Shown: one piece after another, positions 2,967 through 42,393 of the stretch | Layout: each line of letters begins with the position of its first letter | Numbering within the stretch: the stretch's first letter is position 1 | Assembly: GCA_934378145.1 (NCBI GenBank) | Contig: CAKXXW010000007.1 | Coordinates: 10,053-74,052 of the forward strand | Length of the DNA: 64,000 bases | DNA from: an uncultured Eubacteriales bacterium | Lineage (GTDB): Bacteria > Bacillota > Clostridia > Oscillospirales > CAG-272 | Direction: 5' to 3' | Program-made: the position numbers and the translations under genes | Notes under the pieces: generated by a model | Seen by the model: only the letters and a program-made list of their open reading frames with translations | The model's database searches: none | What the model was told of the DNA's origin: nothing

Positions 2967-4046
2967 GTGCGTGATTTCGATATAGCTGTGACCGGCGCGG
3001 GACCCGCCGGAGCGACCTTTGCAAGGCTCGCGGCAAAGAACGGTCTTTCGGTGCTTCTCGCCGACGGACAGAGTGAGCTTTCGCGCAAGCCCTGCGGCGG
3101 ACTTCTCGCACCCGACGCGCAGAATGTCCTCGCGGGAATGAAGCTGACACTGCCGAAAGAAGTCCTTGTCGACCCGCAGATCTTCTCCGTCAAGGTCTAC
3201 GACGCGAAAACACACCTGACCCGCTTCTATCCGCGGCGCTACCTCAATATGGAGCGGCTGAGATTCGACCGCTGGCTGATCTCGCTCGTCCCCGATCGGG
3301 TCGAAATAAAGGCAGGGCGCGTCACGCATATCGAGCGGCAGGGCGAGGGCTTCGGACTTACCTTCGGGGACGGGGAAAAGCTCTTCTGCCGCGCACTTGT
3401 CGGTGCCGACGGCGGAAATTCGGCAGTGAGGAAATTTTTCCTTTCCGAGAATATGAAAAAGGACAAGATAAAACGCTATACCGCCATCCAGCAGTGGTTT
3501 GCCGACGACGGGCGGAGCGAACCCTTCTATTCATGCATCTTCGACGGCGAAACGAGCCCGTCCTGCTCGTGGTCGGCTTACAAGGACGGACTGATAATGT
3601 TCGGCGGGTGCTTCCCGGGGAAGGATTGCCGCAAGGCTTTCGAGCGCCAGAAAGCGAAGCTCATCGCCGACGGCATCCTGCCGTTTGACGGAGAAAAGGC
3701 GATCAAGACCGAGGCGTGCCTTGTGTGCAGTCCGGGAAAGCAGTCGGACTTTGTTACCGGCGGCAACGGAGTATTTCTCATAGGCGAGGCGGCGGGCTTT
3801 GTCAGCCCCAGCTCATACGAGGGCATCAGCTACGCCCTTGACAGTGGGAGGCTGCTCTCTGTGGCTTTTGAAAGCACGAAAAGAGGAGATCTTGCCGACC
3901 TTTCGCAGGTCGCGGATACATACGGAAAGCTCACGGCTCCCATTCGCCGAAGGCTGTTGCTCAAGGACATGAAGCGGCGCGTGATCTTCTCGCAAGCCAC
4001 GAGGAACATCATCCTGCGTACCGGCATCGCTTCGTTGAGGATTTAA
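2967..4046 (+). CDS. FAD-dependent oxidoreductase (geranylgeranyl-reductase-like family)
   Basis: GTG start 8 nt after AAGGAG. The N-terminal DIAVTGAGPAGATFARLAAKNG is a GxGxxG FAD-binding Rossmann motif. 359 aa. Confidence 0.7.
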   Translation: MRDFDIAVTGAGPAGATFARLAAKNGLSVLLADGQSELSRKPCGGLLAPDAQNVLAGMKLTLPKEVLVDPQIFSVKVYDAKTHLTRFYPRRYLNMERLRFDRWLISLVPDRVEIKAGRVTHIERQGEGFGLTFGDGEKLFCRALVGADGGNSAVRKFFLSENMKKDKIKRYTAIQQWFADDGRSEPFYSCIFDGETSPSCSWSAYKDGLIMFGGCFPGKDCRKAFERQKAKLIADGILPFDGEKAIKTEACLVCSPGKQSDFVTGGNGVFLIGEAAGFVSPSSYEGISYALDSGRLLSVAFESTKRGDLADLSQVADTYGKLTAPIRRRLLLKDMKRRVIFSQATRNIILRTGIASLRI

Positions 4047-4055
4047 AGGCGTTTT

Positions 4056-4565
4056 GAAAGTAAAGACCTCACCCGCGGCAATGCCTTCAAAAAGGCATTG
4101 TTACGAGTGAGGTCTTTCTTACCCGTTCACGGCGGGCGCCCGATGGGACGCCCCTACCGTGCGCGAAAATGAAGCGCACCTGCGGTGCATGAAAAATGAA
4201 GCAGGGCTTCGCCCCGTTAAGCGCGGCTTCGCCGCACGGAAGGGAAACGGAGTACGTGCTTCGCTTTATGTTAGCACTATCGGTGTACTTCACCTTAAGA
4301 TTAAACACTTTAACTTTTTGTCTCGGGCAGAATTTCACCCCGTGGGTGAAATTCCGGTGGGTTTTTGAGAAAGGGCTGAAAAAAGGCTGCTCGCAGACTT
4401 TTGAAGACCTTTCTCAAAAAGACACCATAGTTTTGCCGCAGGCAAAATGCCGCGAGACAAGTCTTTACTGCCATAACCTTTCAGCAAATTCTTTGAAGGG
4501 TTCGGGAAACTTTCTTCTAAGAAAGTTTCCCGTGTCCCCCCCGTCGTATCTCCCGTATCCCTCGC
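4056..4565. repeat. Mosaic multi-hairpin intergenic repeat, copy A (gamma hairpin 4056-4120, variable segment, alpha unit 4318-4561)
   Basis: The alpha unit aligns almost base for base with 27470-27715 and 40726-40975. Shared blocks are cttgtctcgg, gaatttcaccccg.gggtgaaattccggtgg, ttttgccNNNggcaaaatgccgcgagacaag, gggaaactttctt..aagaaagtttccc and ctcccgtatc. The gamma hairpin, with inner palindrome atgccttcaaaaaggcat, recurs inverted at 27384-27450. Confidence 0.85.
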
Positions 4566-4581
4566 CGCGGCTTACCTGCCC

Positions 4582-4902
4582 TTAAAGCTCCTTGTCAATA
4601 AGGGCGGTGAGCGCCGACTCGGGCTTATAACCGAGGGAGACGGCTCTGACTGCCTTGTCCTTTATTATCACTACTGTCGGGATGCTGTCGATCTTGAACG
4701 CCGAGGCAAGCTCGGGTTCCTCATCGACATTGACCTTTCCGACCTTGATCCGACCTTCGTAATCGGCGGCGATCTTCTCGACCGTCGGTGCGAGCATGCG
4801 GCAGGGGCCGCACCACTCTGCCCAGAAATCGAGCATCACCGGAAGGTCGGAGCAGAGGACCTCGTCCTCAAAATTATCCTTCGTTATCTTTATCTCAGCC
4901 AT
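4582..4902 (-). CDS. trxA: Thioredoxin
   Basis: 106 aa with the WCGPC active site (FWAEWCGPCRMLAP). It lies 15 nt downstream of alaS. Confidence 0.92.
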   Translation of the reverse strand: MAEIKITKDNFEDEVLCSDLPVMLDFWAEWCGPCRMLAPTVEKIAADYEGRIKVGKVNVDEEPELASAFKIDSIPTVVIIKDKAVRAVSLGYKPESALTALIDKEL

Positions 4903-10772: not shown

Positions 10773-10778
10773 GGTTTT

Positions 10779-10889
10779 ATCTTTTCTCATCCGGACTCTG
10801 ACCGTCGGCACAGGAATCTCACCTGTTCGGCGCCTCTCGGCGTTAGCGGGCTTTACCGCCGGTATGGAATTTCACCAATCCCCAAAGAT
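10779..10889 (-). promoter_or_regulatory. FMN riboswitch (RFN element, Rfam RF00050)
   Basis: The minus strand reads atctttggggattggtgaaattccataccggcggtaaagcccgc...ggtgagattcctgtgccgacggtcagagtccggatgagaaaagat. Both conserved GGUGAAAUUCC-type boxes are present, as are ACCGGCGGUAAAGCCCGC, GCCGACGGU..AGUCCGGAUG and the closing P1 helix (atctttt/aaaagat). Confidence 0.85.
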
Positions 10890-10932
10890 CTGTGATCTTA
10901 AGTTTTTCGCGCTTTCCTCAAGGTCAAATGCC

Positions 10933-14331: not shown

Positions 14332-14826
<495 letters not shown>

Positions 14827-24497: not shown

Positions 24498-24544
24498 TCT
24501 GCGGAGCTTTTGCAGTCGACCCGCTGCATAAGCTTCAAAAAATA

Positions 24545-24582
24545 AAAGCCGTTTGCGGATCCCGCGAACGGCTTTTATTTTT
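24545..24582 (+). terminator. rpsT rho-independent terminator
   Basis: The stem aaaagccgtttgcgg-atc-ccgcgaacggctttt is followed by atttttg. Confidence 0.75.
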
Positions 24583-24832
24583 GCCCGAAAAGAAAACGGC
24601 ATTTTTTCCGAAACATATTGCAAAAAAGAAAAAAGTGTGATAAACTTATCTTGCCACACAATTGAATCAACAGTACACGGGATACCTCTCTTTTTTCATG
24701 GGAGTAGTATACTCTTTTTCTGTCATACAAAAAATGAATTTGGCAAAAACGCAAATTCCGTTTTCGTATGACAAGGAAGAGTATCCTTTTCTGTTGAAAT
24801 TGTGTGGCAACAATAGGAGTTTGCATTTTTCG

Positions 24833-24868
24833 GTGTGGCTCCTGTTGGAGTCACACTTTTTTATTTTT
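24833..24868 (+). terminator. Orphan terminator-like hairpin in the AT-rich spacer
   Basis: The stem gtgtggctcc-tgt-tggagtcacac is followed by ttttttattttt. No convincing ORF lies upstream of it. Confidence 0.4.
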
Positions 24869-25054
24869 CAACAAAGGAGAAGAAAAGAGGTAGCACAAAA
24901 TGATTTATGTATAAAAATAATCATCGGACTTCTTATTGTATATTCATCTAAGAAATACCGGCGGCAAGAAAAGCCCCGCCCGACGATAGAGCAGAAGACT
25001 ATATGCAAGAGAGAAAAAGTGTGGCAATACAATATTTTATGGAGAGAATAAATT

Positions 25055-25891
25055 ATGAAAGAGACAGATCTCAAGGTTTCATATGCAATTTCAAGCTACA
25101 CCATATTTTACACAGCAATATGTGCAATACTGACTTTAGCAGGATTTATCGTCAGCACCTTAATGTATGCAAACAGTAACATATTATTGCTTCTTAGCTT
25201 TTTTTCCATGATTGTAACCATATCTCTCACCATTACTCTAGGGACATGCCCCGCTCGAATAATACCGACTATTGTCGCTTGTCTTTTCTCTAGTATAACT
25301 TTCTTTGCCAATTTAGAATATTTGTCATTCAACCCCGCCGTTTGGGCGTTGCTTATTGTGCCTTGCCTTCAAATTGTATGCATTGTATTGCTCGCATCAG
25401 ATGATATTATCTCAGTTACCGATAAGAGAGTGATACAAACCTGCTTCTTCGGCCACATTGAAAAAAGTATAAGTAACAGTGAAATCAATTATATCGAAAT
25501 CGGATTATTCAATACGATAAAAGTCCGAACATCATCAGGGGGACTTTTTCTTGTTAATGTTGCCGAATTACATGCAATTTTGGAAACGATAAAAGACAGG
25601 CGTTATTTGCAAACAGAGCCATTGAATACGGACCGTGAAGAGGTTCAAAAGCCAAAAAATAATGCCACTGAACATTCTGAAACATTGACGATATCCAAAG
25701 ATAAAAATCCTTTAGATCACGAATTGGATGAAAAAGTAAAATACGACAAAGCGAAATATACACAGACAGAAGATTTCGTTATTGTCCAATGTCCTCATTG
25801 CGGTGAAAAACTTACATACAGCAAGAAAGTATTTCAGACCGAGTCACCACTCCATTGCCCATTTTGCCAAAAAGAATTCAAGCTTCAATAA
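25055..25891 (+). CDS. Hypothetical membrane protein (4 TM helices, PH-like segment, C-terminal CxxC...CxxC zinc ribbon)
   Basis: ATG 8 nt after GGAGAG. 278 aa. The hydrophobic N-terminal 110 aa are followed by the C-terminal CPHCGEKL...CPFCQKEF. About 33% GC in an otherwise high-GC window. Confidence 0.6.
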   Translation: MKETDLKVSYAISSYTIFYTAICAILTLAGFIVSTLMYANSNILLLLSFFSMIVTISLTITLGTCPARIIPTIVACLFSSITFFANLEYLSFNPAVWALLIVPCLQIVCIVLLASDDIISVTDKRVIQTCFFGHIEKSISNSEINYIEIGLFNTIKVRTSSGGLFLVNVAELHAILETIKDRRYLQTEPLNTDREEVQKPKNNATEHSETLTISKDKNPLDHELDEKVKYDKAKYTQTEDFVIVQCPHCGEKLTYSKKVFQTESPLHCPFCQKEFKLQ

Positions 25892-25895
25892 AGTC

Positions 25896-25917
25896 AGCCG
25901 ACCCGAATGGGTCGGCT
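25896..25917. terminator. Bidirectional terminator hairpin between the orphan gene and asd
   Basis: The stem agccgaccc-gaat-gggtcggct has A/T-rich runs on both sides. Confidence 0.6.
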
Positions 25918-25925
25918 ACTTTATT

Positions 25926-26996
25926 TCAGTCAAGATACCCGAGCCTGTAAAGCAGCTCAGCGTTGAGAAGTGCGCCGCCGGCGGCTCCGCGGAGAGTGTT
26001 GTGCGAAAGTCCGATAAACTTTATTCCCTTCTCTCCGTCCTTTTTGAGCCTCCCCGCCGAGATCCCCATCCCGCGGTATAGCCCGCGGTCAAGGACGCAC
26101 TGCGGGCGATCCTCTTCATTATAATATGTAATGAAATGCTCGGGCGCGCTCGGCAGGGAAAGCTCCTGCGGCAGTCCGCGAAGGCTCTCCCATAAACCCT
26201 TGACAAGATCAAGGTCGGGCGCCGCGCCCGAAAAGGTAACGAACACCGACGCCGTGTGACCGTCGCTGACCGGGACCCGAATACACCTTGCCGAGATGTC
26301 CGGCGCAGATGCGGGAACGATTTGTCCTCCTTCGACCTTCCCGAGGATCTTGAGCGGCTCGCGCTCGCTCTTCTCCTCTTCTCCGGCGATGAAGGGAATG
26401 ACATTGCCCCGCATCTCGCGCCAATCCTCAAGGGTCCGCCCCGCGCCCGAGACCGCCTGAAGGGTCGTCACGAAGACCTTCTCTATTCCGTACCCGATAA
26501 GGGGATAAAGCATCGGCAGATAGCTCTGCACCGAGCAGTTGGGCTTCACCGCGATGAAGCCGCGGCGGGTGCCGAGCCTTTTTTTCTGAGCTTCTATCAC
26601 ACAAAAATGTCCGGCGTTGATCTCCGGAATGACCATAGGCACATCGGGCGTCCCGCGGTTCGCGCTGTTGTTTGAGATGACCGGAAGCTCGGCGCGCGCG
26701 TATGACTCCTCGAGCGCGAGAGTCTCCTCCCGGGGAAGATTCGTCGCGCAGAAGACAACGGAGCAAAGCTCCGCCATTTTCCGCGTGTCGGCGGCGTCGA
26801 TGACCCTCATATCACCGAAAATGCCGGCATCTCCCCTGCCTCCGAGAGCCTCGCGGTAGGTCTTCCCCGCGCTCCTCGGCGAGGCTGCAAGCGCCGCGAC
26901 CTCGAAATACGGATGATCGGCAAGCAGCGACAGAAAGCGCCTCCCGACCGTACCGGTCGCGCCGATGACACCGACCCTGATCTTTTCCTTTTCCAT
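25926..26996 (-). CDS. asd: Aspartate-semialdehyde dehydrogenase
   Basis: 356 aa. The N-terminal RVGVIGATGTVGRRF Rossmann motif is present. A VISNNSANR segment and an active-site region (KPNCSVQS...H) match the Asd family. ATG follows GGAGGAC. Confidence 0.8.
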   Translation of the reverse strand: MEKEKIRVGVIGATGTVGRRFLSLLADHPYFEVAALAASPRSAGKTYREALGGRGDAGIFGDMRVIDAADTRKMAELCSVVFCATNLPREETLALEESYARAELPVISNNSANRGTPDVPMVIPEINAGHFCVIEAQKKRLGTRRGFIAVKPNCSVQSYLPMLYPLIGYGIEKVFVTTLQAVSGAGRTLEDWREMRGNVIPFIAGEEEKSEREPLKILGKVEGGQIVPASAPDISARCIRVPVSDGHTASVFVTFSGAAPDLDLVKGLWESLRGLPQELSLPSAPEHFITYYNEEDRPQCVLDRGLYRGMGISAGRLKKDGEKGIKFIGLSHNTLRGAAGGALLNAELLYRLGYLD

Positions 26997-27067
26997 AATG
27001 TCCTCCTTCCGGGGAGCGAAGTCCCCTCGGAAGCATCATATTCCGGAAACAGAAAAAGGTTCCTGCG

Positions 27068-27715
27068 GAGACGGGAGATGCGACGAAGGACGCGGGGGCT
27101 TTCTTGAAAGAAAGCCCCCTGCACCCCAAAGAACTTGTTGGAAGGTTATGGAAGTAACGCTTTGTCTCGGGGCATTTTGCCTACGGCAAAACTATGGTGG
27201 ATTTTTGCCGAGGACTCAAGGGTATGCAAGCATCCCCTTCTCGCCCTCGGGCAAAATCCACCGAAATTTTCCCCCGCGGGGGAAAATTCTGTCCCGAGAC
27301 AAGAGGTTAAACCGTTTGACCTTAAGGTGAAGCTCACTTACAGGACGAACGCACGGTTAAACCGATGCCCCCTAAAAGTGAAGACCTCGCTCTAACGATG
27401 CCTTTTTGAAGGCATTGCCACGGGTAAGGTCTTCACTTTTAGCTTAAGCGCTTTTATCTCTTTTCTCGCGACAGAATTTCACCCCGCGGGGTGAAATTCC
27501 GGTGGTTTTTTGGGAAAGGTCTGAAGAAAGGCTGCTTGCAGACTTTTGAAGACCTTTCCCAAAAAGACACCTTAGTTTTGCCGTAGGCAAAATGCCGCGA
27601 GACAAGTCTTTACTCCTATAATTCGCCGGCAAGTTCTTTGAGGGGTGTGGGGAACTTTCTTCCAAGAAAGTTCCCTGAGTCTCCCGTATCCCCCGCGTAT
27701 CCCCCGTTGTACTCC
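27068..27715. repeat. Mosaic multi-hairpin repeat, copy B: foldback composite (beta unit inverted 27068-27313, gamma hairpin 27384-27450, alpha unit 27470-27715)
   Basis: The two arms are mutually inverted versions of the same hairpin series. The beta arm matches 40285-40545. The alpha arm matches 4318-4561 and 40726-40975. Confidence 0.85.
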
Positions 27716-27733
27716 TGCAACGGAAAAAGGGGA

Positions 27734-27766
27734 ATCTTCCCGAAAGAAGATCCCCCACAAAAATAT
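27734..27766 (-). terminator. Rho-independent terminator of the ynbB-like gene
   Basis: The minus strand has ggggatcttc-tttcgg-gaagattcccc followed by ttttt, 20 nt after the stop codon. Confidence 0.65.
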
Positions 27767-27785
27767 TTTCCTTTATGTTGCCGTA

Positions 27786-29045
27786 TTACTCGCCGAGCAT
27801 ATAATCGACCGCGTGCATCACGCCGAGCTTGCCGTACTCATACGACAGTCCGCCCTGCATATACGATGTATAGGGCGGCTTCAGCGGTCCGTCGCAGGAC
27901 AGCTCGATGGTCGAGCCTACGGTAAACGAGCCGCCCGCCATGATCTCCTCATCCTCGTATCCGGGCATAGCGTCGGGCTGAGGCTCGACATAGGACTCTA
28001 TCGGCGAGCCTTTCTGAAGCCCGCGGCAGAACTTTATCAGGTTGTCCGCGCTGCCGAGGTCGACCGTCTGGACTATATCCGTCCTCCTGTCATCATACCT
28101 CGGGTCAATGCCGCAAAAGCCCGCAAGCTCAAGCAGGCGCGAGGCGAATATCATCGACTTTATCGCCATCCTCGTCACCGACGGCGCCATGAAAAGTCCC
28201 TTATACAGCGAGGAGAGCTGATTGAGATTCGCGCCGAGATCCTTGCCGATGCAGGGTGAGGTCAGCCTCTCGGCTACGTCGTTTATGAGATCTTTCCTTC
28301 CGACGCAGTAAGCTCCGCTGACGGCGATACCCGCGCCGGGATTCTTCATCATCGAGCCTACGGCAACATCGGCGCCGACATGGGTCGGCTCAAGCTCCTC
28401 GGTGAACTCTCCGTAGCAGTTGTCGACGAAGACTATCGCCTCGGGCGCGACGCGCTTCACGAGCGAGATCGCCTTCTCTATCTTGTCTATGGTGAGGCTC
28501 TTGCGCGCGGCATATCCCTTGCTTCTCTGGATATGGACGAGCTTCACTCCGCCCTTTTTCAGCCTCTCCTCTATCGCGGGAAGGTCAAATTCGCTGTTCA
28601 CAAGCTCGATAGCCTCGTATTTTACGCCGTTTGCCATAAGCGAATTGCGGCTGCCCCCCGTGATGCCGATGACGCTCTTCAGAGTGTCGTAAGGCTCGCC
28701 CGAGATGCAGAGCATCGTGTCGCCGTATTTGAGAAGCCCGCTCATCGCGATATAGAGCGCGTGAGTTCCCGACATGAACTGGATGCGCACAAGCGCGTCC
28801 TCCGTGCCGAAAATGTCCGAGTAGATCCGCTCGAGCTTGTCGCGCCCGCCATCGTAGAAGCCGTAGCCCGTTATCTCCATAAAGTCGGAGGTCGAAACTC
28901 TCTCCTTCTGGAACGCCTGAAGCACCTCGGCGCTTCTCTTGAGGCATATCTCATCGGTCCTCGCAAACATCTCCGCGCAATCCTTCTCCGCGCGAAGGGC
29001 AAGCTCGACCGTCTTTTCTCCGAATTCGTAACCGCAGTAATTCAT
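27786..29045 (-). CDS. Methionine gamma-lyase-family PLP enzyme (YnbB / aluminium-resistance-protein family)
   Basis: 419 aa. The segment ITGYGFYDGGRDKLERIYSDIFGTEDALVRIQFMSGTHAL is characteristic of this family. Confidence 0.75.
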   Translation of the reverse strand: MNYCGYEFGEKTVELALRAEKDCAEMFARTDEICLKRSAEVLQAFQKERVSTSDFMEITGYGFYDGGRDKLERIYSDIFGTEDALVRIQFMSGTHALYIAMSGLLKYGDTMLCISGEPYDTLKSVIGITGGSRNSLMANGVKYEAIELVNSEFDLPAIEERLKKGGVKLVHIQRSKGYAARKSLTIDKIEKAISLVKRVAPEAIVFVDNCYGEFTEELEPTHVGADVAVGSMMKNPGAGIAVSGAYCVGRKDLINDVAERLTSPCIGKDLGANLNQLSSLYKGLFMAPSVTRMAIKSMIFASRLLELAGFCGIDPRYDDRRTDIVQTVDLGSADNLIKFCRGLQKGSPIESYVEPQPDAMPGYEDEEIMAGGSFTVGSTIELSCDGPLKPPYTSYMQGGLSYEYGKLGVMHAVDYMLGE

Positions 29046-37175: not shown

Positions 37176-38450
37176 TTATTTCAGTCCGAGGAAGGCGCTC
37201 TTTATTTCGCCGTACATATAGAGCGAGCCGAGCGCGATCAACGGAATATTCTTGCTCTTTGCATAGTCCACGGCGGTACGAACTGCCTCTTCCGTGCTGT
37301 CAAATGGCTTTGCCGGCGCCGAGCAGGCTTCAAAATCCTTTGCATAGAGCGAAGGTTCGAGTGCGCGCGGGTTCGGCGGCTTTAAGATAAACACGCTGTC
37401 GGCGACCGTCGAAAGCTCCCTTGCCATAGAGGTGTGATCCTTGTCGCGCAGGACTCCGGTGAGAAGGCAGACCTTCTCTCCTCCGAAGTAATGCTTTATG
37501 CTCATGATAGCCGCAGCGATGCCCTCCGGATTGTGTGAGCCGTCGATGATGAAGAGCGGATCCTTCTCCGAGAGCTTCTCGAATCTGCCCTTCCATTTCG
37601 CCTCAGCCATTCCCTTTACAAGAGCTTCCTCGGGGATGTCAAGTCCGCGCCTCCGAAGCTCACGCACGGTGCTTATCGCCGTCGCCGCGTTGTAGGGCTG
37701 GTAAAGTCCGAGCAGCCCGAGCCTTACCTTCTCACCGTCGTATTCAAGCTCGGTTCCCGAAAGGTCGCACGAGGTGACATTGATCTTTTCCCTGTCGACC
37801 GCGAAAAAGTCGCACCCGCGCTCTTTTGCGGCAGTCCCGATGACCTCCAGAGCCTCGGGCGATCCTCCTCCGAAGATGACAGGCACGCCGGGCTTGATTA
37901 TCCCCGCCTTTTCGTGCGCTATCTTCTCCACCGTGTCGCCGAGTATCGCGGTGTGATCGAGCGAGATGCCCGTTATCACAGAGACGAGAGGCGTCTTTAT
38001 TATGTTCGTCGCGTCGAGCCTGCCTCCCATCCCGACCTCAAGCACGACGGGGTCGCACTTATGCCTTGCGAAAAAGAGCATCGCGACCGCAGTGATAAGC
38101 TCGAATTCGGTGGGTTTATCCTTCATAGACTCGGCAAAGGGTCTTACATAGGAGGTCAGCTCGGCAAGCTCCCCGTCGGAGATCTCCCTGCCGTCGCAGA
38201 CCATGCGCTCGTTGAAGCGTTCAAGGTAGGGCGAGGTGTAAAGCCCCGTATGGTATCCCGCCGCGCGAAGCACCGAATCGGTCATCGCGCTGACCGAGCC
38301 TTTTCCGTTCGTCCCCGCAATATGGATAAAACGAAGGCTGTCCTGCGGATCTCCGAGCAGTGACAGAAGCTCCCCTACCCTTTCAAGGCCCGGGCGCGTC
38401 CCCCCGAAAAATCCGCAGTGGATATATTCAAGCGATTCCTGATAGTTCAT
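37176..38450 (-). CDS. folC: Bifunctional folylpolyglutamate synthase / dihydrofolate synthase
   Basis: 424 aa with the Mur-ligase P-loop HIAGTNGKGS. ATGA overlap with the folT stop. Confidence 0.9.
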   Translation of the reverse strand: MNYQESLEYIHCGFFGGTRPGLERVGELLSLLGDPQDSLRFIHIAGTNGKGSVSAMTDSVLRAAGYHTGLYTSPYLERFNERMVCDGREISDGELAELTSYVRPFAESMKDKPTEFELITAVAMLFFARHKCDPVVLEVGMGGRLDATNIIKTPLVSVITGISLDHTAILGDTVEKIAHEKAGIIKPGVPVIFGGGSPEALEVIGTAAKERGCDFFAVDREKINVTSCDLSGTELEYDGEKVRLGLLGLYQPYNAATAISTVRELRRRGLDIPEEALVKGMAEAKWKGRFEKLSEKDPLFIIDGSHNPEGIAAAIMSIKHYFGGEKVCLLTGVLRDKDHTSMARELSTVADSVFILKPPNPRALEPSLYAKDFEACSAPAKPFDSTEEAVRTAVDYAKSKNIPLIALGSLYMYGEIKSAFLGLK

Positions 38451-39052
38451 TTTTTCTTTTCAGTCAACCTTTCGAGCTGTGCGCGGAACACGCGGCTCCG
38501 CATCAGCAGACAGATCACGGTAAATTCGGCGATCCCCGTTATGGTGTAGACAAGGAGCCTCCATCCCATCAGCTCAAGGATCCCCATATTGTATTTTGTA
38601 AGGTACCATGCGGCAAGCCCGAACGACTTCACGACGACCGAGCCGACAAGATGCGAGAAAAGCACCGAAAGCCCGACGGAAAGCACGAGCGGCTTCCTTA
38701 TAAGATAGTGTGACACGGCGCCCGAAACAAAGCCGACCGCAGCCGCGCCGAGCGTTATCAGCGGGTTTATCGTGTAGCCGTAAAGCAGGCAACCGACAAG
38801 ATCGGCGACGGCTCCCGTCATCGCCCCGACGAGAGGCCCGAAGCATATTCCGGCTATCATCAGCGGAAGATTCTCGAAGCTGATCCTGATTACCTCCATA
38901 AACGGGTTCGGGATCTGAAGAAATTTTCCGAGGATGAAGCTCATTGCGGCAAGAAGCGCCGCGGCGACGATGATCCTCAGCCTTGTCGGTGCGCGAAGAT
39001 CGGAGATAAGAGTTTCTTTAAGGGTCTGCTTTTTTGTAATCGAGTTTTCCAT
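38447..39052 (-). CDS. folT: Folate-family ECF transporter S component
   Basis: The ATG at 39052 follows AAGGAGG. The ORF-track start at 39112 falls in the riboswitch expression platform. The polytopic protein contains FENLPLMIAGICFGPLVGAMTGAVADLVG. A THF riboswitch lies upstream. Confidence 0.8.
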   Translation of the reverse strand: MENSITKKQTLKETLISDLRAPTRLRIIVAAALLAAMSFILGKFLQIPNPFMEVIRISFENLPLMIAGICFGPLVGAMTGAVADLVGCLLYGYTINPLITLGAAAVGFVSGAVSHYLIRKPLVLSVGLSVLFSHLVGSVVVKSFGLAAWYLTKYNMGILELMGWRLLVYTITGIAEFTVICLLMRSRVFRAQLERLTEKKK

Positions 39053-39179
39053 ATAAAATTCCTCCTTTTTCCCGTATTCGGTCAAAAGGAAGTGCAGAAA
39101 AAAAGCCCTCACATAAACCGACGGTCAAGATAAAAGGGACCGTCGCTCCATGCGGCAGTCCCCTATCAATTACCGTTTG

Positions 39180-39290
39180 CCGTATAAAGCGGGATGCAGA
39201 ACGGTGACCGCGTCGGGTATCCCCGACTTCGTCCGGACGGCAACTCCCCGTCCCTCCGGCACTTCACGCCATCGCTCTTACTCTTTTACG
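39180..39290 (-). promoter_or_regulatory. THF (tetrahydrofolate) riboswitch (Rfam RF01831)
   Basis: The minus strand reads aaagAGUAAGagcgauGGCGUGAAGUGccggaGGGAcgg...ggaCGAAGucgg...ccgACGCGGucaccguucUGCAUCCCGCUuua. The conserved AGAGUAG, GCGUG.AGUG, GGGA, CGAAG, GCGCGG-like and UGCAUCCGCU blocks are present. A terminator-like stem and U-run follow at about 39127-39165. Confidence 0.75.
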
Positions 39291-40252: not shown

Positions 40253-40284
40253 GGTTTTCCTCTGCTTTGTTTGGTCTGTTTTCG

Positions 40285-40975
40285 ACGGGAGACGCGGCGG
40301 ACGGGAGACGCGGGAAACTTTCTTGGAAGAAAGTTTATCCTCACCGCAGGTGAGGAAATGCACCCTTCAAAGAACTTTTCGGGAAACTACGGAAATAACG
40401 CCTTATTCCGCGGCATTTTGCCTGTGGCAAAACTTTGGTGGATTTTTGCCGAGGACTCAAGGGTATGCAAGCATCCCCTTTTCGTCCTCTGCAAAATCCG
40501 CCGGAATTTCCCCTCTGCGAGGCGAAATTCTGCCCGGAATAAGTGATAAAACCGTTTGAGCTTAAAGCAAAGCTCTCTGATAGATCCAATCTTAAGGTAA
40601 TGCTTACCGATAGATAGAGCATCCTGCGTAAATCTTGCGTAAATCTTGCGTAAATCTTGCGTAAATCTTGCGCAAAATGTTCAACCTGTCGGTGAATTTT
40701 GCCTTTAGGTTAAACGCCTTAAACCCTTGTCTCGGGACAGAATTTTCCCCCGCGGGGGAAAATTCCGGTGGATTTTTGAAAAGTCCGATAAAAGGCTGCT
40801 TGCAGACTTTTGAGGAGCTTTTCCAAAAATCCACCATAGTTTTGCCACAGGCAAAATGCCGCGAGACAAGGCAATATTGCCATAACCTTTCAGAAAAGTT
40901 CTTTGAAGGGTGCGGGAAACCTTTCTTTCAAGAAAGTTTCCCGCAGCTCCCGTATCGTTCCTTCGTATCCCCCGT
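40285..40975. repeat. Mosaic multi-hairpin repeat, copy C: foldback composite (beta unit inverted 40285-40545, central 11-bp tandem array, alpha unit 40726-40975)
   Basis: The architecture matches copy B. The ends are inverted repeats: acgggagacgcgggaaactttctt on the left, against the reverse complement of the right end, acgggagctgcgggaaactttctt. Confidence 0.85.
40625..40679. repeat. 11-bp tandem repeat, TGCGTAAATCT x4 plus one degenerate unit
   Basis: Perfect units at 40625, 40636, 40647 and 40658. A degenerate unit, tgcgcaaaatg, is at 40669. Confidence 0.9.
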
Positions 40976-42393
40976 CAAGCCTTTTTGTAGGTAGTGCCTT
41001 CCTTTGTGTCGACAAGGGTGATGCCTTTCGCCGAAAGCTCGCCGCGGATGCGGTCAGCCTCGGCGTAATTCTTTGCCTTTTTCGCCGCTGCGCGAGCCTC
41101 GATAAGGTCAAGGATCCAGCGGTCGTCATCCGACGGGGCGTCCTTCGCCTTTTCTTCCTCACGGAAGGCGGACACGGCGTCGAGCAGACCGAGCTGCATC
41201 ACCTGCTCAAAATTTTCTATCAGCGCGAGCTTAGTCGCATCGTTCGTGTCAGCCTTAAGCACATCGTAGTAGGCGGTCACGGCGAGCGAGGTGTTCATAT
41301 CGTTGTCAAGAGCCGCGACAAAGCCGGCACGGAGATTCTCAAACGCCTGCCTGTCCACCTCGCCGTCGGGACTGAGCGCGGCAATGCGCGAGACGAGCTT
41401 GCGGTAGGCAGCCTTCGCATTGTCAAGTCCCTCGTAGGAGAAGACCAGCGACTTGCGGTAGTGCGACTGCATGCAGAAGAAACGGTAGACCTCCGGCGCG
41501 TAGCCCTTGCTCTCAAGGAGTGAAACGGTCAGAAATTCGCCCGAAGATTTGCTCATCTTCCCGCTCGTCGTGTTCAGGTGATGCACATGGAACCAATAGT
41601 GGCACCAAGGATGCCCGAGGTAAGCCTCGCTCTGCGCGATCTCGTTCGTGTGATGCGGGAAGGCGTTGTCGATGCCTCCGCAGTGAATGTCAAGATACTC
41701 GCCGAGATATTTCATGCTTATGCAGGAACATTCGATGTGCCAGCCGGGGTAGCCTACACCCCACGGGCTGTCCCACTTAAGCTCCTGCGCGTCGAATTTC
41801 GACTTCGTGAACCAAAGCACAAAGTCAGCCTTGTTCCTCTTGTTTTCGTCGCCCTCAACGCCCTCTCTGACGCCGACGGCAAGATCCTCTTCTTCAAAAT
41901 CGTTGAAAACATAATACTTTTCGAGCTTAGAGGTGTCAAAATAGACATTCCCGCCGGCAATATAAGCGTATCCCTTCTCGAGCAGCGAGGTGATGACCTT
42001 TATGAAATCGTCAATGCAACCCGTCGCCGGCTGAACGACATCGGGAGTCCTTATCCGCAGCTTGCGGCAGTCCTCAAAGAAAGCGTCGGTGTAGAACTTC
42101 GCTATCTCAAGCACCGTCTTGTGTTCGCGGCGCGCGCCCTTCAGCATCTTGTCTTCACCCGTGTCGGCATCGCTCGTGAGATGTCCGACATCGGTGATGT
42201 TCATCACGCGCGTGACATCGTAGCCCGCATAGCGGAGGTAACGGTCAAGCACATCCTCCATAATGTAGGAGCGGAGATTCCCTATGTGCGCGAAATGATA
42301 GACCGTGGGGCCGCAGGTGTACATCTTCACCTTTCCCTCTTCGATCGGTCTGAATTCTTCTTTTGTCCTTGTCAGCGAATTGTATATCTGCAT
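40975..42393 (-). CDS. cysS: Cysteine--tRNA ligase
   Basis: The ATG at 42393 gives MQIYNSLTRTKEEFRPIEEGKVKMYTCGPTVYHFAHIGN (HIGH motif). A KMSKS motif is present. Confidence 0.94.
   Translation of the reverse strand: MQIYNSLTRTKEEFRPIEEGKVKMYTCGPTVYHFAHIGNLRSYIMEDVLDRYLRYAGYDVTRVMNITDVGHLTSDADTGEDKMLKGARREHKTVLEIAKFYTDAFFEDCRKLRIRTPDVVQPATGCIDDFIKVITSLLEKGYAYIAGGNVYFDTSKLEKYYVFNDFEEEDLAVGVREGVEGDENKRNKADFVLWFTKSKFDAQELKWDSPWGVGYPGWHIECSCISMKYLGEYLDIHCGGIDNAFPHHTNEIAQSEAYLGHPWCHYWFHVHHLNTTSGKMSKSSGEFLTVSLLESKGYAPEVYRFFCMQSHYRKSLVFSYEGLDNAKAAYRKLVSRIAALSPDGEVDRQAFENLRAGFVAALDNDMNTSLAVTAYYDVLKADTNDATKLALIENFEQVMQLGLLDAVSAFREEEKAKDAPSDDDRWILDLIEARAAAKKAKNYAEADRIRGELSAKGITLVDTKEGTTYKKA

Follow-up and report, generated by a model that had tools for sequence, protein, structure and literature searches.

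We find that the foldback element between asd and a Met_gamma_lyase (YnbB-like) gene is probably a locus of lineage-specific, mosaic, non-coding interspersed repeats, of the kind that includes BIME/REP, BOX, NIME, and bcr elements. Its basic unit, here termed an arm, is ~300 nt long and occurs five times in the window (the whole 64-kb stretch of DNA that was analysed). Arms are repeated, lie at gene ends, do not encode protein, fold with covarying stems, and undergo conversion and slippage between copies. Judged from sequence, they would be a new family within a known category of bacterial repeats, for which any function is a candidate only.

The five arms are 73-86% identical to one another, as determined by repeat finding and alignment. 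A 19-base core pattern, taken from the hairpin that is most conserved, matches exactly these five sites (0 expected from shuffles), and a covariance model recovers the same sites at 205-255 bits, with no comparable match elsewhere in the window. An earlier sequence-only reading had placed five arms here, next to genes for thioredoxin, the Met_gamma_lyase/YnbB-like protein, CysS, a GtrA-like protein, and Asd; both the sites and the gene identifications hold. The arm extent of ~245 bp that it gave was too short: it left out a ~50-nt leader on the 5' side of the outer helix, and the tail proved to be a tandem array that varies.

The foldback at 27058-27715 consists of two head-to-head arms, B2 and A2, around a terminator-like hairpin. 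Arm B2 (27058-27365, minus strand) has the beta subtype of hairpin P3. Its leader (27365-27304) is followed by core helices P1 to P4 (27303-27157), a linker, P5 (~27119-27094), and a tail (27093-27058) that points at the start codon (26996) of asd (25926-26996, minus strand), the gene on that flank of the element. The outer boundary of this arm, previously put at 27068, was moved to ~27058 by comparison with relatives that lack the arm. Arm A2 (27420-27715, plus strand) has the alpha P3 subtype. Here, P1 pairs 27460-27470 with 27596-27606 and encloses P2 (27474-27499), P3 (27501-27571, with a G(CUUG)C tip), and P4 (27575-27593); a linker, P5 (27650-27675), and a tail of CGTATCCCC units (27676-27715) follow. 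Between the A2 tail and the stop codon (27786-27788) of the YnbB-like gene (27786-29045, minus strand) sits module Z (27716-27770, minus strand). Module Z is the intrinsic terminator of that gene, with a stem at 27756-27729 and then a T-run, and a similar hairpin occupies the same place in a related contig (L079).

The remaining arms lie at two further loci. Arm A1 (4270-4566, plus strand) is a solo arm of the alpha subtype, with its leader at 4270-4316, core at 4317-4461, P5 at 4504-4531, and tail at 4532-4566, ending 15 nt short of the trxA stop codon (4582-4584). At the third locus, the beta arm B3 (40271-40589, minus strand) has an extra hairpin inserted ahead of P5 and carries 3.6 tail units of CGGGAGACG at 40286-40315; its tail ends ~20 nt before the start of the gtrA-like gene (40252). 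Its partner, the alpha arm A3 (40680-40977, plus strand), has a leader at 40680-40725, core plus P5 at 40726-40953, and a tail that extends to the cysS stop codon (40975-40977). The arms of one composite are mostly of different subtypes and only ~78% complementary. Repeat modules fill essentially the whole intergenic space at window loci 1 and 3.

Nine full copies, each folded singly, adopt one common architecture (9/9). An arm comprises a conserved ~50-nt leader upstream of P1, a cloverleaf-like core, a linker of ~45 nt, hairpin P5 (GGGAAACTTTCT..AGAAAGTTTCCC), and a tail of two to four tandem units of ~9 nt each (CGTATCCCC or CGTCTCCC). In the core, three hairpins extend from a junction that is closed by an outer helix P1 (CTTGTCTCG.. 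with ..CGAGACAAG, carrying a bulged G). P2 consists of GAATTTyxCCyC plus its complement; P3, a long hairpin, contains an internal loop and ends in an invariant G(CUUG)C tip; and P4 reads TTTTGCC-RYA-GGCAAAA. The stem and flanks of P4 are invariant, and its loop varies. The P4 loop variants GCA, GTA, and ACA reported earlier are confirmed, and the 'tac' and 'tgt' listed beside them are the reverse complements of gta and aca. Likewise, the earlier alpha and beta arms do differ in orientation, but they also differ in P3 hairpin subtype, which is not strictly tied to orientation. An arm folds far better than shuffled sequence on the plus strand (z = -6.7) and the minus strand (z = -6.2). As single-stranded DNA, the entire composite folds back at -211 kcal/mol (z = -19). 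A linker hairpin (CCTTTCAG / CTTTGAAGG) predicted by RNAfold in some copies was dropped, one of its sides being variable and the other invariant.

The complement of the tail (27676-27715 and 4532-4566) is G-rich, with three to four G-tracts (e.g., GGGGG-ATACGC-GGGGG-ATAC-GGG-AGACTCA-GGG). It fits a loose G-quadruplex pattern located just after stop codons; this pattern is absent from some copies.

Recurrent extra motifs (modules T, U, and H) separate alternating arms. Module T, which forms the centre of the 27058-27715 composite (27371-27450), is a compound hairpin preceded by an A-run and followed by a T-run. It resembles a bidirectional terminator, and its right half also serves as the A2 leader. 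A second copy (4057-4116) lies 10 nt past the stop codon of a FAD-binding gene (2967-4046), and there are further copies at several related loci, one of them directly after a stop codon (L091, 9555-9614). Module U (4120-4268, plus strand) is a conserved multi-hairpin module of ~140 nt that accompanies most solo arms on their leader side and once occurs without an arm. It contains several short hairpins, each preceded by ATGAAGC. Other copies lie in L079 (5509-5639, 10401-10534, and 16997-17108), L084 (1837-1979), L091 (10179-10297), and L093 (3503-3610); variation among them is too low for a covariation test. Module H (GGGAGGATAATATCCTCCC), whose flanks are conserved, forms an insertion behind a short tail, and a second linker, P5, and tail come after it, so that its copies form a subfamily with a duplicated 3' end. 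These copies are in L079 (10071-10096), L092 (10500-10525, 15003-15058, and 18875-18955), L091 (9661-9735), L065, L071, and L080. The centre of the gtrA-cysS composite (40590-40679) instead holds an 11-nt tandem repeat, ATCTTGCGTAA, in 5.1 copies at 40621-40676 (95% matches).

The predicted fold is preserved by change on both sides of its stems. Covariation was assessed in 27 arm copies from the window and metagenome contigs, aligned with a covariance model; a set of 18 copies gives the same picture. This alignment replaced a raw MAFFT alignment, on which RNAalifold yielded a poor consensus because of truncated and shifted rows. In the covariance-model alignment, which is fitted to the model and in which variants are inherited in blocks, standard pairs make up 95.3% of 1581 pair cells, compared with 88.9% when partners are shuffled and 29-61% when they are slid by 1-3 columns. 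Both sides change in 21 of the 67 pairs, a count reached by 0 of 500 shuffles. Mean pairwise identity is 0.84 in stem columns and 0.83 in unpaired core columns. Thus, greater conservation does not account for the stems, which change and yet stay paired. The independent events amount to ~15 pair-level changes and not to 137 covarying cells, because gene conversion moves whole hairpins between copies.

The variants themselves are few. P2 occurs as TTTTCCCCC/GGGGGAAAA, TTTCACCCC/GGGGTGAAA, and TTTCGCCTC/GAGGTGAAA, and the two subtypes of P3 (alpha and beta) differ in approximately nine pairs. P5 ranges from GGGAAAC/GTTTCCC through GGGGAAC/GTTCCCC to AGGGGGC/GCCCCC. The P2, P3, and P5 variants are found in almost all combinations. 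All stem variants quoted in the sequence-only reading are real and paired, and its claim that compensatory change keeps the fold is upheld by covariation counts that beat both the shuffled and the slid controls.

Such hairpins could also persist as neutral palindromic DNA, through intrastrand template switching and gene conversion, in which case the 'compensatory' changes would be single mutational events. P2, P4, and P5 are indeed almost purely Watson-Crick, with G-U (34) and A-C (17) cells rare among the 1581. Each hairpin variant moves as a unit, conversion patches are directly visible, and there are only a handful of variant types per helix. Against this, imperfections persist: the bulged G in P1 is kept in 20 of 23 copies, the G-T at the base of P4 in 26 of 26, and a 2x2 internal loop in beta-type P3 in nine copies. 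Three pairs in the long-range helix P1 of B3, whose two strands are 130 nt apart, are compensated (CTTATTCCG with CGGAATAAG). Moreover, the ~40 invariant nucleotides around P4, with a variable loop in their midst, are not predicted by palindrome repair alone. We consider neutral maintenance very unlikely, and we infer that selection on structure, as opposed to hairpin-templated repair, lies behind the kept fold.

Comparisons between strains show how the mosaic arises. The contig L084 comes from another strain with flanking genes 98% identical to those of the window, and it carries the equivalent composite between asd and the YnbB-like gene. In L084, the centre has been replaced, with ~300 nt that include module U in place of the T hairpin. 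The arm on the side of the YnbB-like gene has its P2, the 5' strand of P1, and its leader swapped for another variant, with a breakpoint within P2. The arm on the asd side is only 90% identical to the window copy, and there are three additional 9-nt tail units. Two further strains (L079 and L092) are 98.4% identical over 9.4 kb. The arm upstream of their ABC operon has identical ends in both, but the strains differ in a ~150-nt patch (P2, P3, and a portion of the leader) that is beta in one and alpha in the other. Downstream of the same operon, the L092 arm (14608-14738) has its P4 loop joined to its P2 loop at a GCGGG/GCAGG microhomology, a deletion that removes P3 entirely. The orthologous L079 arm is intact; past the leader of this arm, the two strains are no longer syntenic. 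Swaps of patches, centres, and tail units between strains thus indicate that the mosaic is made by gene conversion, and conversion, deletion, and slippage among copies explain why the P2, P3, and P5 variants are so freely combined. The earlier description of a mosaic repeat family is borne out by multiple copies, by variant combinations, and by patches exchanged between strains.

All same-species strains examined carry arms at the same loci; we therefore see recombination and not movement. Relatives with Asd proteins 88-91% identical keep the conserved asd leader and have no tail or P5 beside it, so the arm on the asd side was either gained in the lineage of the window or lost in the others. 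Because upstream synteny differs, the site does not qualify as a clean empty one; in one of these relatives, another gene with its terminator lies 85 nt upstream. No clean filled-versus-empty pair with both flanks conserved was found among the strains and relatives examined. Arms have no clear terminal inverted repeat or target-site duplication, and their two ends (leader and tail) are unrelated. A composite has inverted ends only as a consequence of its inverted arms. At loci 2 and 3, the flanks have no adjacent direct repeat in common, a test limited by the fuzzy ends of the tails.

The window also contains an AT-rich island (24500-25900; 36-38% GC versus ~58-60% in neighbouring genes). The island includes a 278-aa ORF (25055-25891) with no Pfam match. 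It is missing from the relative with a 91% identical Asd (L081), in which asd is followed directly by rpsT.

Copies of the arm differ by 1-, 2-, and 4-nt indels, and the open frame shifts from copy to copy. This excludes a conserved ORF and agrees with the earlier view that the element is non-coding. Type I toxin-antitoxin repeats (ldr, ibs/sib, and hok-like) were rejected as a candidate, since there is no conserved short ORF for a hydrophobic peptide and both frames and indels vary among copies.

In all cases with known neighbours, the tail of an arm points towards the nearest gene end and the leader towards the intergenic interior. This generalises the earlier link to gene ends, which now extends to every arm. 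Tails lie 0-70 nt from the stop codons of trxA, the YnbB-like gene, cysS, an ABC operon, and genes for an alkaline phosphatase, a sigma factor, a GFO/IDH protein, and polysaccharide synthesis. They lie 20-60 nt from the start codons of asd, the gtrA-like gene, and a MatE gene, and there are more distant start-facing tails at an ABC operon (~340 nt) and a Lactamase_B gene (~120 nt). These neighbours are unrelated housekeeping genes. Paired arms are arranged head to head with their leaders inward (window loci 2 and 3, L067, L072, L080, L084, and L092). Solo arms are as common as pairs and mostly have module U on their leader side.

This placement raises the possibility that the arms are cis-acting RNAs with a host function, transcribed with their neighbours as 3'-UTR or 5'-UTR structures. 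Stop-proximal arms would block 3'-5' exonucleases or attenuate read-through. Start-proximal arms would act as structures in the 5' UTR, and the tail behind them, rich in C and poor in G, could load Rho. In addition to the consistent orientation of the tails, a promoter scan of the gene strand from the YnbB-like gene to asd found no sigma-70-like site within the element, and asd may therefore be reached only through it. In the arm sense strand, neither the G(CUUG)C tip nor the basal G-U of P4 varies. G-U cells are more numerous there than A-C cells (34 versus 17), which is a weak lean only, as the pairs showing either number 12 versus 11. The invariant CUUG tetraloop and the P4 G-U lean towards RNA in the arm sense. 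The alpha P3 subtype is stop-proximal in six of seven cases and the beta subtype start-proximal in five of seven, an association that is suggestive only and not significant with 14 cases. As a marker of the type of gene end, subtype was rejected on that count and because it is contradicted at one orthologous site.

Several observations speak against a cis-acting role. Both strands of the arm fold equally well, and stop-proximal and start-proximal arms would be transcribed in opposite senses; the fold is thus compatible both with RNA and with single-stranded or cruciform DNA. P5 has no following U-run in either sense. Between stop codon and arm, a terminator is already in place for both the YnbB-like gene and the ABC operon, the neighbouring genes share no pathway, and subtype flips between strains at that same orthologous site. 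On balance, a cis-acting RNA with a host function seems unlikely. A T-box or other leader for asd and cysS was ruled out by Rfam and by the unrelated neighbouring genes.

A broader proposal is that the arm represents a new large structured RNA class, with a ~230-nt core plus P5 (~450 nt with module U), a four-way junction, and perhaps at least 100 copies per genome. It would act as a cis insulator, attenuator, or stabiliser at the ends of transcription units, or as the RNA partner of a mobile-element protein. We regard this as quite unlikely. Independently transcribed small or medium RNAs, or orphan scaffold RNAs in the style of omega-RNA or bridge-RNA with the tail-side flank as a variable guide, appear highly improbable. 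Such RNAs would account for a large conserved multi-helix core, for a sharply conserved end beside a variable flank, and for a family confined to one lineage. However, there is no conserved promoter upstream of the leader or of module U and no terminator after the tail, which is a slippery tandem array with no defined boundary. There is also no TnpB, IscB, or IS110-like gene in the 64-kb window or in ~90 kb of flanks, and no match to HEARO, IS605-orfB, or any other Rfam family even at E = 10.

More generally, the element has no match at gathering score in Rfam 15 (including HEARO, IS605-orfB, T-box, riboswitches, and ribozymes). Searches at E values up to 10 returned only chance matches to microRNA hairpins (~25 bits, versus gathering scores of 60-117). 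Collections of phages and plasmids gave no match, and viral contigs gave no arm match. The earlier statement that this is not a described family still stands after the Rfam, phage, and plasmid searches. Elsewhere in the window, two riboswitches score above the Rfam gathering threshold: an FMN riboswitch (10775-10893, minus strand) and a THF riboswitch (39185-39287, minus strand), the latter upstream of an ECF transporter S-component gene (38447-39112). ARAGORN detected no tRNA or tmRNA fold in the window, which argues against a repeat derived from either.

The family is found only in one isolated lineage, sampled in Hadza and other gut metagenomes. A 139-kb contig assembled from a Hadza gut metagenome carries the Asd protein of the window. 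The nearest homologues of this protein share 98, 91, 90, and 88% identity with it, followed by a gap to 67%, which indicates that the host belongs to an isolated, uncultured Clostridia lineage. A scan of 185,579 species representatives (one genome each) for the P4 pattern yielded 64 loci, none with arm homology by BLAST; these were dismissed as chance hairpins. A scan of metagenomes recovered seven short, low-coverage ENA contigs with true arms, many of which end within an arm. A search of public gene calls with the arm translated as though it were a gene retrieved 15 spurious "proteins" (P0001-P0006 and P0127-P0135), whose contigs provided further copies with their context. In total, five arms occur in the 64 kb of the window and 27 in ~155 kb of related DNA. 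Independent short-read assemblies of this species repeatedly stop within the arms by asd and trxA (L077 1-66, L078 1-62, and the ends of L088-L090). Thus, the family limits the contiguity of metagenome-assembled genomes.

Because the arms are extragenic, multi-copy, lineage-restricted, modular, folded, recombinogenic, and indifferent to their neighbours, we read them as selfish non-autonomous repeat DNA. The family would have spread in that form, conceivably (and here we are guessing) via an enzyme acting in trans that recognises either folded single strands or the invariant region around P4. The fold may be kept because the spreading machinery needs it. Alternatively, arms may be transcribed as 3' or 5' untranslated regions, where a compact fold would be tolerated or useful, for example, in 3'-end protection or in insulation between co-directional genes. 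The bulged G of P1, the G-T at the base of P4, the internal loops of P3, the G(CUUG)C tip, and the weak G-U excess would fit an RNA function equally well. There are precedents in the compensatory changes of bcr1 and in the modular BOX and BIME elements (PMC3184786, PMC3049150). No transposase, integrase, recombinase, or HUH enzyme was detected in the window, where 27 proteins were scanned with Pfam, or in the ~90 kb of fetched flanks.

If our reading of selfish, mosaic repeats is right, the family shows how far bacterial mosaic repeats can go, with multi-helix units ten times the size of a REP. Several intergenic regions of the core genome, next to rpoBC, trxA, asd, and cysS, would be almost entirely taken up by these repeats. 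Through the conversion patches between strains, one can observe directly how families of this sort remain mosaic without losing their fold. In practical terms, arms break short-read assemblies of this gut organism and seed spurious protein predictions in public databases. If the fold acts as RNA, the arms would constitute a large new class of structured RNA from the human gut.

Four known repeat systems resemble the family in part. As in MITEs and foldback elements, the inverted arms are long, non-coding, and self-folding, with outer ends made of short tandem sub-repeats. They differ in that no target-site duplication or matching autonomous element was found and in that the two arms of a composite usually belong to different subtypes. 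The bcr1 and bcr5 repeats of the Bacillus cereus group are likewise Firmicute repeats (155-310 bp) restricted to one lineage, with compensatory changes and a multi-hairpin, cruciform-like fold (PMC3184786). In contrast, bcr1 has 5-bp terminal direct repeats and a strain-variable location, and bcr5 flanks a resolvase/transposase cluster, neither of which was found here; nor do bcr repeats share sequence similarity with the arms.

BOX elements of S. pneumoniae are also modular, variable in copy number, and strongly folded as single strands, with annotated open frames on both strands (PMC3049150). Their co-transcription with neighbouring genes has been proposed to stabilise 3' ends (PMC3049150). 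Module T, as a repeated terminator-like hairpin near stop codons, further recalls SPRITE (PMC3049150). However, BOX elements have a boxA-boxB(n)-boxC organisation, are mostly <200 bp, and possess terminal inverted repeats and target duplications, neither of which could be defined in arms. Arms are larger, belong to an unrelated lineage, and are unrelated in sequence, and the described architecture of BOX sets them apart (PMC3049150).

The fourth likeness is to the BIME/REP (PU) clusters of enterobacteria and the REPIN doublets of Pseudomonas. These are extragenic and multi-copy, with alternating (head-to-head) units and recurrent spacer motifs (PMC3184786, PMC3116915). They also have two unit subtypes that are often paired within a cluster, lie at gene ends within or between transcription units, and are linked to recombination. 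The arms share no sequence similarity with REPs or REPINs, and no RAYT/Y1 or HUH gene is present in the window or its flanks. Unlike in REPs, no GTAG or CGTC tetranucleotide was seen in a fixed place in arms (PMC3733652); GTAG is limited to some P4 loops, and CGTC to some tail units. Finally, whereas a REP is a single GC-rich hairpin of 20-40 bp, an arm spans ~300 nt and combines five helices, a four-way junction, and a tandem tail.
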